From Candidatus Thorarchaeota archaeon (GTDB lineage Archaea; Asgardarchaeota; Thorarchaeia; Thorarchaeales; Thorarchaeaceae), in the NCBI GenBank assembly GCA_046758445.1, contig JBHIAE010000006.1, positions 1 to 64,000 on the forward strand: a DNA stretch of 64,000 nucleotides, in the 5' to 3' direction. The notes under the pieces are model-generated. The model did not search any database. It saw only the letters and a program-made list of their open reading frames with translations, and had not been told where the DNA came from. Below, one piece after another: positions 26,125-30,876 of the stretch (position 1 is its first letter; every line of letters starts with the position of its first letter). The position numbers were made by a program, and so were the translations under genes.

Positions 26125-27888
26125 TCATTCATCCTTGCCGTCTTTCGACTTCTTACCGGAAGCCTCCTGTGAGATACGCTCGAGAATATCATCAATCTCC
26201 GTAATAGCTTCTTGATCAATTACGTCAAGCGTAGCTGTAGTGCTTGGCTCTTCGTCAGGCCCCAATCTTTCAATCTCACCCAAGAATAGAGAGAGCTCTC
26301 TCATGGTTTCCTCGTCAAGTTCCGGCTCAATGTCAGGGTCGGCATCAGTTGCGACCACCTCGTTGTGGGAGAAGGCTTCCAGAGCCGTATCTAGATCTTC
26401 CTTTGACACCTTCTCAATCTCAGCGCCGACAAACTCGTCAGCCTCAAGCGCTTCAAATATCAACTCGATGGCCATCTTTCGTCCCCCATCTTCGGTCGAG
26501 AGTACTTCTATGTCGGCGGGTTCTTCCTCGGCTCCGTCAACTGATACTTCGACTGTTTCGACTTCCTCAGTCGAAACAGGTTCTTCGGGTTCATCGATGG
26601 CCTCTGCAACTACATCATACGCATCTGATTCGGCGACAACTGGTACTTCTGTTGTAATCTCAAACTCAGCAGATTCCTCTTCTACCTGAGCTGTAGCAAC
26701 TTGCTCTACTGTGGTGATCTCTTCAGAGACTTCGATGTCAACAAGCTCTTCTTCATCAGAACTCTCAACCGTTACCTCAACTTCCTCTGGTTCTGCCACA
26801 TCAGACTCCATTACGTCGCCAATCTCTTCGATTACTTCCTCTACAACCTCGTAGTCGCCGACATCTTCAATCACATTGCCATATTCATCAACAAGTACTT
26901 CTTCCACGACTTCGACTGTTTCATATTCTTCAGCAAGCTCTTCTTCACGTGCACGCGCCATTGCATCCACTTCTGCAATGGCCTCCTCGGTGGCTTTGTC
27001 GGTGAAACTCAGAAGCTGTGACGTCGGTAGATCTGGAAGAGCAACTCCGACATAGGTTGCGGCAGCATTCATCAGGATCCTCAACATCTCATCCCGACGA
27101 CCCTTGTCAATGGCAACCATCGGATAAGTAGGAACCCCAAGTATCTTCTGCACGACCTCTGGCTTCATCACGTTAGGCTTGTCTTGCTTGTTGGCAATTG
27201 CGAAGAGGGGCACCTTCGGAGCATCTCTTCTGATGAGCTTGAGAATGTCCTTGCTGATTATGACGTTGCGGAGTGAAGAATCGCATACAAGAAAGATAAC
27301 ATCCGCACCGTGGAAGTAGAATCGCCACAGTTTTCTGAATCGTTCCTGACCTGCGAAATCCCACAGGACTAGAGAGTAGTTCCCAAAACGAATGTTCTCA
27401 ACAGTCTCAAGATTCAGTGCAATAGTTGGCACATACTGAGTGGGAGGCGTTTCTCCAAGAAGGAGATGAAGTGTCGTGGTCTTCCCGACACCGCCCTCCC
27501 CGACAAGTGCTATCTTCAGCTTTGTAATCACGGAAGATTCAATGACGGCCTCATAATTGTCTAGCAAGCTCTCGAAGCCAGAGCTTGATATCTTTCTCTT
27601 GATGCTGGATGTGCCGTCCTTCAGCTTGTCAGCGAGGACTCTCTCGTCTTCGCCCATATCGCTAACATAGACCAAGAGAACGTCTTGAACCACCTCTCTG
27701 CTCATGAATTTGTCATCTTCAATCACAAGGGCTAGCTCGGCCGTATCGTTTCCGGAGGCTGACTGTATCTCACGACGTGTAGAAAGGAACTCCTCGACCG
27801 CCTCCCAAGGGACCTCAATAGGCCAGTATGAAGACGAGGCAAGAAGATCACCCGTAGATATGCGGACTAGATACGTCGCGATTATCAA
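26125..27888 (-). CDS. longin-like domain + Arf/Rab-like GTPase + long acidic tail
   Basis: GEGGVGKTT, YVPTI, WDFAGQERFRKLW, ANKQD; about 120-aa N-terminal alpha/beta domain; about 290-aa Glu/Val-rich tail. Confidence 0.88.
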   Translation of the reverse strand: MIIATYLVRISTGDLLASSSYWPIEVPWEAVEEFLSTRREIQSASGNDTAELALVIEDDKFMSREVVQDVLLVYVSDMGEDERVLADKLKDGTSSIKRKISSSGFESLLDNYEAVIESSVITKLKIALVGEGGVGKTTTLHLLLGETPPTQYVPTIALNLETVENIRFGNYSLVLWDFAGQERFRKLWRFYFHGADVIFLVCDSSLRNVIISKDILKLIRRDAPKVPLFAIANKQDKPNVMKPEVVQKILGVPTYPMVAIDKGRRDEMLRILMNAAATYVGVALPDLPTSQLLSFTDKATEEAIAEVDAMARAREEELAEEYETVEVVEEVLVDEYGNVIEDVGDYEVVEEVIEEIGDVMESDVAEPEEVEVTVESSDEEELVDIEVSEEITTVEQVATAQVEEESAEFEITTEVPVVAESDAYDVVAEAIDEPEEPVSTEEVETVEVSVDGAEEEPADIEVLSTEDGGRKMAIELIFEALEADEFVGAEIEKVSKEDLDTALEAFSHNEVVATDADPDIEPELDEETMRELSLFLGEIERLGPDEEPSTTATLDVIDQEAITEIDDILERISQEASGKKSKDGKDE

Positions 27889-28116
27889 GTGAAGCTCACC
27901 ATGATCATATGATTCAATAGCGTGATACCGTTGTTCTGGATGCAGGATTGTGAATCGGTTTGTTCACAGTCAAATCTTCGGTTTCAATGCTATTTACAAC
28001 ATTCTGTGACGGCAGGAATACTCACAATGACATATGAGACAATCTGTGATAAGACCGTACACTGCGCGTGATTGCAGAGAAATAGCGATGTCGTACACCA
28101 TGCTGACCAGGATGCT

Positions 28117-28478
28117 ATTTGGGACGCAGAGGTTCGCACAGGCGATCCTCCGCATCCGTCGGGCCTTCAAGCCGGACGCACGCAGAAATCGGTTTGCGCA
28201 AGTATTGTTTGCAAGGGGATTCATCCTCTCGGAAGCGAATGTTCCGAGAGTCCAATGCTAGAACTCGTAATAGGGACCGTGTGTTGTGAATGCGAGTTCT
28301 TGTGACGGGGAAGTCGTACGTCCTGCTCATTTACGAAGGCAGCCTACCCCGGGTGGGGTATGCAGGATGTCGAGAGCTCTTACGGCATATGAAGCTTTCT
28401 GGTTCCCGAAATTACGAAACGATACTTCATTGAGCGTTAACGCGGTCAAAAAAGAACCTCTGCGCAGTTCTACCAAAT
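28117..28478 (+). ncRNA. unassigned large structured RNA candidate (about 360 nt)
   Basis: Nested helices 28125-35/28454-64, 28200-10/28417-27, 28226-34/28242-50, 28260-69/28291-300, 28306-11/28403-08, 28319-26/28362-69, 28345-50/28355-60; G-U pairs favour the + strand. Confidence 0.7.
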
Positions 28479-28539
28479 TGCACAGAATCAACTACAGATA
28501 TCGCCCCGAGTCTTAGCTAATTGTGACCTGATTCCCGGT

Positions 28540-29679
28540 TTAGCGTGGGAAGTTGTCCCTCAAGAGTCGCAGATGGTTGTGAACCATCTCCAATTCCTTG
28601 GGGTCGTCTGGAGTCTTTTCAAGGTCTGTCACAAGTGTCTGTAGGAAGTATTCTGGGAAGAAGAGCCGCACTCTGATATCATTGAGAAGGAACAACCACT
28701 TGTCGTATTCTCCCGAAGGACCCTTCCTTCTTCTTTCAGAAACCACTCTGTACTTCTTCAGAGTTTGAACAGCCTGCTTGAGTTCTTTCGGTGGTATTCC
28801 AAGAGTGGCTTCAAGCTCTGATATGTTGACAGGTCTTCTGCGAAGCTCATTGAGAGTGTCATAGCAGTCTGGGTCTGCTAGGATGGAGGCCACTGAAACC
28901 GTGTCTTCAGGCGTCTTCTGCCATTCCGTCAGGAACTCTAGGACTTCGGACTTGTACTCTGCTGCCAGTTCAGGGTCAAGTATGGAGCTTGATGCCTCCA
29001 TGGCCATGAGCGGCGGTGCACGAAAGACCTCAAGGTCCTTTATCATGAAGATACATGTTCGACCAATCTCGTCGACCCACTCTGACTTTACGAGGCCTAG
29101 CTCTTCAAATGGCGCGATTATTGACTCCACACTTACACTGGGTAAACCGGTGACCATCTTCAGCCATTCCTCAAGATCCTCCTTAGAGATGCCGCCTTTC
29201 CAGAGCTTCGGAAACACCGCCCGCGATATCTCGTCAGAGAACAGACGAGCGAGTCGTGACTCGTCTGTCATGCCCGCCAGTCTTATGATTCGCCGATACG
29301 TATTTTCGAGCTCGGTCTGAAACTCAGCATCGGTCATAGAAACAACTGCATTTGTGAGTGGCGAAACAATCGAGGTTATCGCGGCCTCGTAGGCCTTTGG
29401 ATCTTCAGGGGGTCTGAGCAGGAGTGAAACGCAATACTGCTCCTCCTCTCTTACGATGCCAGTATAGTAGGATGCGACGAGGTATTCCTCGCCTCCGATG
29501 CGAACGCTAAGAGACGAGAAACCGGCGGTGGCATCACCCATGGCGTGTGACGTAAAGATCCTCATTATCTCTGTGTTGAGATCCTCTCGGTAGTAGTCAG
29601 CGAAGTCTGCAGGGACTTTCGCTTTGAGGACTGCACCGATCTTGCTATCCCAGTCAATCAAAAGCATTGCTTCTGGCAT
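28540..29679 (-). CDS. uDENN/longin-domain protein with C-terminal wHTH domains (NPRL2-like architecture)
   Basis: N-terminal LLIDWDSKIGAVLKAKVP resembles the uDENN F(H/D)xxxGPxxxxxxP hairpin; two wHTH-like segments. Confidence 0.65.
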   Translation of the reverse strand: MPEAMLLIDWDSKIGAVLKAKVPADFADYYREDLNTEIMRIFTSHAMGDATAGFSSLSVRIGGEEYLVASYYTGIVREEEQYCVSLLLRPPEDPKAYEAAITSIVSPLTNAVVSMTDAEFQTELENTYRRIIRLAGMTDESRLARLFSDEISRAVFPKLWKGGISKEDLEEWLKMVTGLPSVSVESIIAPFEELGLVKSEWVDEIGRTCIFMIKDLEVFRAPPLMAMEASSSILDPELAAEYKSEVLEFLTEWQKTPEDTVSVASILADPDCYDTLNELRRRPVNISELEATLGIPPKELKQAVQTLKKYRVVSERRRKGPSGEYDKWLFLLNDIRVRLFFPEYFLQTLVTDLEKTPDDPKELEMVHNHLRLLRDNFPR

Positions 29680-29808
29680 TCTTTTTCTCTCCGGTCCCAA
29701 ATGTGACTGGTCTACTGGAGCTGGTTGGAGACGTTGACCTGTGGGTGCTAAAAAAGCTTGTCACTAGGCGCTTCGCAAAACAGTCAAAATCGCCCAAAAA
29801 GCGCACTT

Positions 29809-30612: not shown

Positions 30613-30876
30613 GATGGGGCCACTCTGTTCAAACGAGGACCTCAAGGGGAAATCAAACCATCCCAGCGTGGACACGTGAGGCGATAAATCGGAAGGGCAT
30701 CCCCCTCCCATGTAACAAACTGCGATAGCGACTTGCGTCCATTCGGGTGAAGCTTGAGCGTCCCCGAGACGAAACCGCGTTCGTTCGTTCTTTGGGTCCC
30801 CTGTATAGGGGGGCCAAGGTCCCCTTGCAGAGTTCTCATGCCCCCGATTCGTTTAATCACGTGTCCCGGTCCCATC
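30613..30876 (+). ncRNA. unassigned structured RNA candidate (about 240-260 nt), rod with branched apex
   Basis: Helices 30613-21/30868-76, 30670-79/30857-66, 30687-92/30844-49, 30695-700/30838-43, plus apical hairpins; G-U pairs favour the + strand. Confidence 0.65.

Follow-up and report, generated by a model that had tools for sequence, protein, structure and literature searches.

Evidence for a conserved, structured non-coding RNA gene beside genes for a longin-like protein and a small GTPase in one family of Asgard archaea

The 64,000-nucleotide stretch of Candidatus Thorarchaeota DNA analysed here, hereafter the window, almost certainly contains a gene for a structured non-coding RNA, positioned between the gene for a longin-like protein (p386) and an Arf/Roc-type small GTPase gene. 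The RNA is uncatalogued and about 245 nt long, shorter than the element of about 360 nt proposed in a first-pass annotation of the same DNA, and its features suggest a regulatory RNA, not a ribozyme. It is very probably encoded on the minus strand; this, together with the transcript ends and the expression of the RNA, we infer from the features collected in Table 1 and discussed below. We put at roughly 0.4 the probability that the RNA is an independently transcribed regulator which pairs with the p386 leader and controls its translation or stability.

Table 1. Features of the RNA locus and the adjoining genes, with positions in the window, in the order in which the minus strand is read
Feature	Positions	Strand	Basis and remarks
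p386 promoter, GACAAGC-TTTTTTAG	29748..29762	-	Retained in most genera, some 70 nt before the ATG
GGGACCGGAG in p386 leader	29689..29698	-	Directly next to the GGAG ribosome-binding site, 9 nt ahead of the ATG
p386 gene, longin-like domain plus two winged-helix domains	28540..29679	-	Immediately upstream of the RNA in every case
Hairpin AGAAC/GUUCU plus U6, probable p386 terminator	28448..28471	-	Sequence; A6/T6 run kept in the genus
BRE/TATA-like promoter of the RNA (motif M3'), predicted	28386..28402	-	Minus strand reads CCAGAAAGC-TTCATATG; same as the unpaired region of the first-pass annotation
Predicted ncRNA, about 245 nt	28117..28362	-	Conserved block, match of model R2 and promoter spacing
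5' hairpin UACCCC-ACCC-GGGGUA	28342..28362	-	Minus-strand fold; variable or optional in other genera
Long-range helix, 5' strand	28315..28340	-	P-a 28315-28323, extension P-b 28325-28340
C-rich junction CCCCGUC	28304..28310	-	0-1 mismatch in all anchored sequences
Hairpin H5'	28262..28299	-	Stem 28293-28299 with 28262-28268; 24-nt loop bears box A
Box A, GGUCCC, in H5' loop	28273..28278	-	Same alignment column in 68/72 RNAs
Box B position	28248..28253	-	GGACUC here (degenerate in the genus); UUGGUCCCC in most other genera
Genus-specific hairpin CUCUCGGAA / UUCCGAGAG	28226..28250	-	Compensatory replacement of CG by UA inside the genus
Conserved junction ACUUGCGCAA (ACUUGCGCAU in other genera)	28194..28203	-	Alignments
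Long-range helix, 3' strand	28163..28182	-	P-a 28174-28182, P-b 28163-28172
3' terminal hairpin H1'	28123..28156	-	Double changes at 10/10 outer pairs
Arf/Roc-type small GTPase gene	26125..27888	-	Pfam Arf, E = 7e-21; downstream neighbour in most genera

Searches against Rfam 15 yielded zero families, both for the whole window at gathering score and for 27850-28600 at E <= 10, both strands being covered in each case, and no description of the RNA was found in the literature as far as this could be searched. The element occurs once in the 3.25-Mb assembly. With the strong covariation described below, these results bear out the earlier proposal of a novel non-coding RNA. A MITE or other mobile element, which the first-pass annotation had named as a competing explanation, is ruled out by the single copy per genome, in relatives as well as here, and by the constant syntenic place. 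No conserved reading frame exists, which agrees with the earlier finding of no credible ORF; a conserved frame is excluded because single-base indels occur within the genus. The RsaE family proper was likewise rejected, neither strand of the element matching any Rfam family. A second candidate structured RNA of the first-pass annotation, at 30613-30876 in the window, also had no Rfam match in the whole-window scan.

The archaeal RNase P RNA (RF00373) and SRP RNA (RF01857) share with the element their size range, single copy and multi-branched covarying fold, but the element matches neither model (for RF00373 not even at E <= 10 in 27850-28600) and both RNAs are present elsewhere in the genome. 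The first reading of the sequence had not found the RNase P CR-I/P4 or SRP helix-8 signatures either. The canonical RNase P RNA lies at C1:76870-77208, with a score of 175 bits. The SRP RNA, at C20:50319-50630, matches the archaeal Rfam model over its full length at 83.7 bits (E = 4e-19), a value below the gathering score of 96.5 bits, so that standard annotation would overlook it. A multi-branched covarying fold with invariant single-stranded segments would also suit a catalytic or otherwise novel large RNA, whether a ribozyme or a divergent RNase P/MRP-like RNA. Such an identity is highly improbable, given that no Rfam ribozyme or RNase P family is matched even at E = 10, that the canonical RNase P and SRP RNAs are accounted for, that neither a supported pseudoknot nor a conserved motif resembling a catalytic core was found, and that the RNA is limited to one family. 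Nothing points to catalysis, and the ribozyme part of the earlier proposal is not upheld; nor, with zero Rfam matches, is a divergent RNase P indicated.

The distribution of the element was followed with blastn and with two covariance models (genera are labelled g1-g14 etc. and the source genome G000). Within the genus, blastn recovers a single copy from each of 15 genomes out of 16, at 76-97% identity, and the edge of the conserved block is sharp near 28117. The core model, R1, searched against 86 family genomes, found one full-length copy in each of 70, representing 13 of 16 genera. R2, a minus-strand model shorter than the full-length RNA, found the element in 31 of the 32 family genomes of a phylum-wide draw and also recovered diverged copies in g12, g14 and g2, the three genera missed by R1; its match in the source genome spans 28122-28326 on the minus strand (136 bits). 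The two models combined thus place the element in all 16 genera of one Thorarchaeota-type Asgard family, and among 119 genomes from 25 other Asgard families neither detected it once.

A single genome from the sister family provides the comparison with the state outside this family. It carries a p386 orthologue (65% identity) with the GTPase gene 124 AT-rich bases further on, and no element. This gap is likely to be the ancestral arrangement. Since the sister family has both genes 124 bases apart without the element, the RNA arose in, or was inserted into, the p386-GTPase spacer in the family ancestor and has been kept since. The sister-family spacer itself (L096:2641-2764, genome G037) holds a TATA-like TTTATATATA and no structured RNA.

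Evidence for the fold comes from a model-fitted alignment of 72 sequences (A6), in which 86.6% of cells form standard pairs and double changes, affecting both sides, are seen at 29 of the 30 modelled pairs. The covariation score of A6 is 0.427, as against 0.207 for shuffled alignments; none of 500 shuffles reached it, and sliding the partners brought it to 0.115 or less. An alignment of the core on the plus strand gives the same covariation picture. Among the individual helices, P-a shows changes on both sides at all nine of its pairs, and the long-range helix of which it is part extends outward to 15-25 bp in most genera. Hairpin H5' is paired in 96.9% of cells, with double changes at six of its seven pairs. 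Single-stranded segments are conserved as well: CUUGCGCA, within the junction at 28194-28203, is invariant or nearly so. The collection of homologues and their covariation, proposed as a check in the first-pass annotation, therefore sustains a conserved, covarying, single-copy RNA between the two genes; the strand, the size and the closing stems attributed to it are not supported.

The closing stems in question were two long-range pairings of 11 bp each. Their component sequences are all present, CGCAGAGGTTC at 28125-28135 and GAACCTCTGCG at 28454-28464 for the first, AAGTATTGTTT at 28200-28210 and AAACGATACTT at 28417-28427 for the second, and the plus-strand MFE fold of 28117-28478 does use them (-135.5 kcal/mol, z = -3.3; z for the minus strand is -3.9). 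As real helices they are contradicted by the position of their 3' partners (28417-28464), which lie upstream of the predicted promoter and outside the family-wide RNA. Neither stem is conserved; the first is lost already in the closest relative (94% identical, GAACAGAATTGG), and it competes with the covarying local terminal hairpin. The conserved set of helices consists of the terminal hairpin H1', helix P-a with its extensions and the H5' hairpin.

Two further pairings were considered and rejected. A candidate pseudoknot of AUGCGCAAGU with the H5 loop UUGCG is missing in g5 and becomes A-C on the minus strand, and a pairing of M3 with the CUAGAA junction is inconsistent between genera and competes with H5. 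Less guided approaches were uninformative: a raw mutual-information scan of the segment-wise alignment gave no usable helices, clade structure and misalignment dominating the signal, and the structures from RNAalifold were poor when raw MAFFT alignments of distant genera were used.

The assignment to the minus strand rests on the helices with compensatory support, the whole-segment MFE comparison of the two strands being mixed. The first reading had held that wobble pairs favour the plus strand, antisense to both neighbours, but the counts point the other way. The plus-fitted alignment contains 86 A-C against 45 G-U combinations (81 against 26 in the three covarying helices), whereas the minus-strand alignment contains 211 G-U against 53 A-C. 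Among 59 distinct sequences, 52 form a stabler P-a/P-b duplex on minus than on plus; G-U pairs number 146 on minus against 26 on plus, and on the minus strand the duplex often forms one continuous helix of 13-18 bp; the few sequences in which the long-range helix is more stable on plus count against this reading. For the terminal hairpin, energies summed over 62 sequences are -1406 kcal/mol on minus and -1208 on plus; A-C mismatches number 2 on minus and 19 on plus. Single cases follow the same direction: an internal G-U of the g7-type H5' stem is A-C on the plus strand, as is a minus-strand G-U in the genus-specific hairpin (28226-28250) of genome G015. At the position of the 5' hairpin, 52 of 62 sequences have the stabler hairpin on minus, a preference to which base composition may contribute.

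Were the RNA instead read from the plus strand, its boxes would be GGGACC, mimicking the p386 leader, and could titrate a factor that binds GGGACCGGAG. Several observations lean this way: the core has the better MFE on plus in 59 of 61 sequences, G-U combinations arise on plus at some candidate pairs (helices 2 and 3; CUGG/CUGG), a few long-range helices favour that strand, and some g5 genomes have TATA-like words roughly 30 nt ahead of the hairpin. We nevertheless consider a plus-strand RNA very unlikely. Every helix with compensatory support favours minus; the MFE advantage of the core is discounted because the core is G/U-rich on plus, so that base composition explains it; no promoter or terminator is consistent on that strand; and the conserved unpaired M3, without a role on plus, makes a good promoter on minus. 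The compensatory helices and this promoter together argue against the orientation antisense to the neighbours.

Motif M3' is kept in all genera, the most diverged included, and has no pairing partner. It closely parallels promoter sequences elsewhere in the genome, the RNA having AGAAAGC-TTCATATG where the tRNA-Arg gene has GGAAAGC-TTTATGTC, and similar sequences precede the genes for RNase P RNA (TC-TTTTTATG), SRP RNA (GGAACG-TTTTTACG) and p386 (Table 1). A T-rich word upstream of it had been considered as the TATA box until this comparison with known promoters led to its replacement by M3'. At the tRNA-Arg, RNase P and SRP genes the promoter-like sequences are located 31-34 nt upstream of the RNAs, and it is because of this spacing that the 5' end of the new RNA is placed at about 28359-28363. 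In 10 representative sequences from 8 genera the first helix starts 19-25 nt past the ...ATG of M3', the offsets having been read by eye from printed folds, as a scripted offset statistic proved too noisy. We predict that M3' drives independent transcription of the RNA. In L022 the stop codon of p386 and this promoter are 31 nt apart.

The 3' end would lie just beyond the terminal hairpin, at about 28110-28121. Downstream of H1' the sequence is CCAAAU in this genome and CAACAUUUYU in most genera; a run of four or more U residues occurs within 30 nt downstream of H1' in 25 of 62 sequences, and no U-tract follows the 3' hairpin in G000. The approximately 360 nt of the first-pass annotation are thus reduced to about 245 nt. 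Part of the difference is taken up by the probable p386 terminator hairpin (28448-28471), which is upstream of the RNA promoter and outside the family-wide RNA and includes one arm of the formerly proposed outer stem.

This terminator and promoter bear on the possibility that the element has no gene of its own and acts in cis within the p386 transcript, as a structured 3' UTR or a p386-GTPase read-through spacer, with roles that could include control of stability, processing or read-through. The arrangement of the genes suits such an element, which without exception follows p386 directly and in the same orientation, the gap after the stop codon being just 23-31 nt in some genomes; the GTPase gene is next in the same orientation in most genera, and the two genes stand close together (124 nt) in the sister family. 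We judge this quite unlikely, since in the present genus the hairpin with its U6 tract separates p386 from the element, since a BRE/TATA-like motif precedes the first helix at constant spacing in all genera, and since a role as GTPase leader is impossible in g6, g10 and g4, where a convergent plus-strand gene stands in place of the GTPase gene. The same replacement disposes of a riboswitch or other cis-acting 5' leader on the minus strand; a leader on the plus strand would have a convergent gene next to it.

The constant companion of the RNA, p386, was called as 28540-29700 (386 aa), its conserved start being the ATG at 29679. In tblastn searches it is 84-95% identical in amino-acid sequence across genera and always adjoins the RNA. 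Pfam has no family for it, and a protein atlas groups the neighbouring protein with those of Thorarchaeota and other Asgard archaea. In the AlphaFold model (pLDDT 81) an N-terminal alpha/beta domain is followed by two winged-helix-like modules, and Foldseek returns weak matches only, to FLCN-FNIP2, GATOR1 subunits, the AP5 longin subunit and ArsR-type winged helices. On the strength of the model, the N-terminal domain appears longin/roadblock-like and 'longin-like plus winged helices' seems a fair description of the protein. The label 'NPRL2-like' was considered and is not established, the fold matches being weak. Paralogues of p386 at about 25% identity number two to three per genome (in G000, C17:32678-33724 and C56:1883-2941). 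One orthologue, L093 (G017:C12:44251-45399), contains a single in-frame TGA within a match that is otherwise 86% identical.

The C-rich segments are the most conserved single strands of the minus-strand RNA. Each RNA carries one to three GGUCCC boxes, in loop and junction; in the count over 72 RNAs the range is 0-3 for exact boxes and up to 4 for relaxed ones. Box A is mostly unpaired in the G000 fold, and the junction column of box B reads GGUCCC in 43 of 72 RNAs. Within GGGACCGGAG of the p386 leader, the portion GGGACC(G) is complementary to the CGGUCCC of box A. The ten bases of this leader element are invariant in g1, g3, g7, g6, g9 and g2, and its flanks vary. The element, with its GGGACC, is missing from the p386 leader of g4, g13, g12 and g14, all of which keep the boxes, and GGGACCGGAG is missing from the leader in the sister family, which also has no RNA. 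Sites of the GGGACCGGAG type number two in the genome, the p386 leader being one of them. At G000:C7:84117-84146 (plus strand), a gene for a 193-aa small GTPase (MIIDYG...GPAMSGKTT) has GGGGGACC 26 nt before its ATG and upstream of GGAGGAG, which may be a second site to which the boxes are complementary.

From these data we infer a pairing between the RNA and the p386 leader, with an effect on p386 as sketched here. A minus-strand transcript from about 28362 to 28117 would start from the BRE/TATA promoter, and its long closing helix P-a/P-b would hold the multiloop on a rigid scaffold. The multiloop would thereby display C-rich single strands, namely GGUCCC in the H5' loop, the second box in the junction, and CCCCGUC; the stable 3' hairpin would terminate the transcript. 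The boxes could then pair with GGGACC(G) beside the GGAG ribosome-binding site of the p386 leader, and this pairing would control p386 translation or stability. Several findings speak against this reading. The complementarity between RNA and leader is a seed of 6-8 nt only. Shuffled leaders gave duplex energies as good as those of the real whole leaders (z from -1.65 to +1.4). Genome-wide, GGGACC occurs 8 times before start codons, against a median of 11 in 60 permutations, and because it is not enriched there no regulon is visible. The four genera that keep the boxes without GGGACC in the p386 leader, the degenerate box B of the present genus and the missing U-tract after the 3' hairpin of G000 weigh on the same side.

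The same boxes might instead be protein sites on a sponge or RNP scaffold, the GGGACC of the p386 leader being unrelated or linked indirectly. The repeated short motif in loops of a structured RNA is shared with the sponge RNAs CsrB/RsmZ, whose GGA loops bind CsrA, but the thorarchaeal RNA has 1-4 motifs, no known binding protein, and GGUCCC rather than GGA. A protein-binding role would agree with the number of boxes and their frequent location in small hairpin loops (g3 CAAAU-GGUCCCC-AUUUG; g8 UCCCCG), with a covarying scaffold more elaborate than a simple antisense RNA needs, with the four genera (g4, g13, g12 and g14) that keep the boxes and have no complementary p386 site, and with pairing energies that lend no support to the duplex. 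Set against this, no candidate partner is known, and CsrA is not known from archaea; most of the RNAs have just one or two exact boxes; and it would have to be a coincidence, roughly estimated at a few per cent, that the boxes exactly complement a conserved element at the ribosome-binding site of p386, the linked gene. Protein binding as the role of the boxes is on balance rather unlikely.

For a regulator that pairs with the p386 leader, the nearest parallels are the C-rich-seed sRNAs of Firmicutes (RsaE/RoxS, RNAIII and LhrC; PMC2790875, PMC4132741), which likewise have conserved unpaired C-rich motifs, often in several copies. RsaE and RNAIII use unpaired UCCC motifs to bind Shine-Dalgarno regions, and initiation is thereby blocked (PMC2790875). 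The shared UCCC, contained in the GGUCCC/UCCCC of the thorarchaeal RNA, sits in the most conserved loops in both cases; and both have a stable 3' hairpin. A complementary G-rich site at the ribosome-binding site of a target has a candidate counterpart here in the p386 leader of six genera, and none there in four others that keep the RNA. The differences are equally plain. There is no homology of sequence or structure and the host is an archaeon; at about 245 nt the thorarchaeal RNA exceeds them in size, and it has a multiloop closed by a long helix; and it is strictly linked to one neighbouring gene, with which its pairing is predicted. The most economical reading would make it a functional analogue of the UCCC-motif RNAs of Firmicutes and not a member of their family. 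Among archaea, the trans-acting sRNAs of Methanosarcina mazei are intergenic and have been proposed to pair near ribosome-binding sites. They show no homology to the thorarchaeal RNA, which is far more structured, family-wide and fixed in its synteny.

In Asgard archaea very few structured non-coding RNAs are known besides the universal ones. The present RNA is family-wide, covarying and fixed beside the gene for a longin-like protein, with an Arf/Roc-type GTPase gene on its other side in most genera, both of them eukaryote-signature genes. If its boxes do control p386, sRNA-type translational control would extend to a proto-eukaryotic GTPase module, and a defined RNA-mRNA pair would be available for testing. 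In the most far-reaching reading, the RNA would belong to an Asgard longin-domain/small-GTPase module, made up of a GATOR1- or FLCN-like protein together with an Arf/Rag-like GTPase, either as its dedicated controller or as an RNA subunit, and would have been inserted between the two genes in the family ancestor and retained. We regard this as decidedly unlikely; were it correct, it would offer an archaeal precedent for regulation by RNA of a GTPase switch of the eukaryotic membrane or nutrient-signalling type. For annotation, the strand and borders of the element are corrected, and a model is supplied by which the gene can be detected in all genera of the family.

Two minor observations concern the surrounding genome. 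ARAGORN detects just 16 tRNA genes in the source genome, which is 92.7% complete, and many of its tRNA genes are probably intron-containing, split or unassembled. Between the 3' end of the RNA and the start of the GTPase gene, a block at 27983-28050 of the window (minus strand GTAAATAGC) is kept in part of the genus and, judged by its sequence, may be the GTPase promoter.
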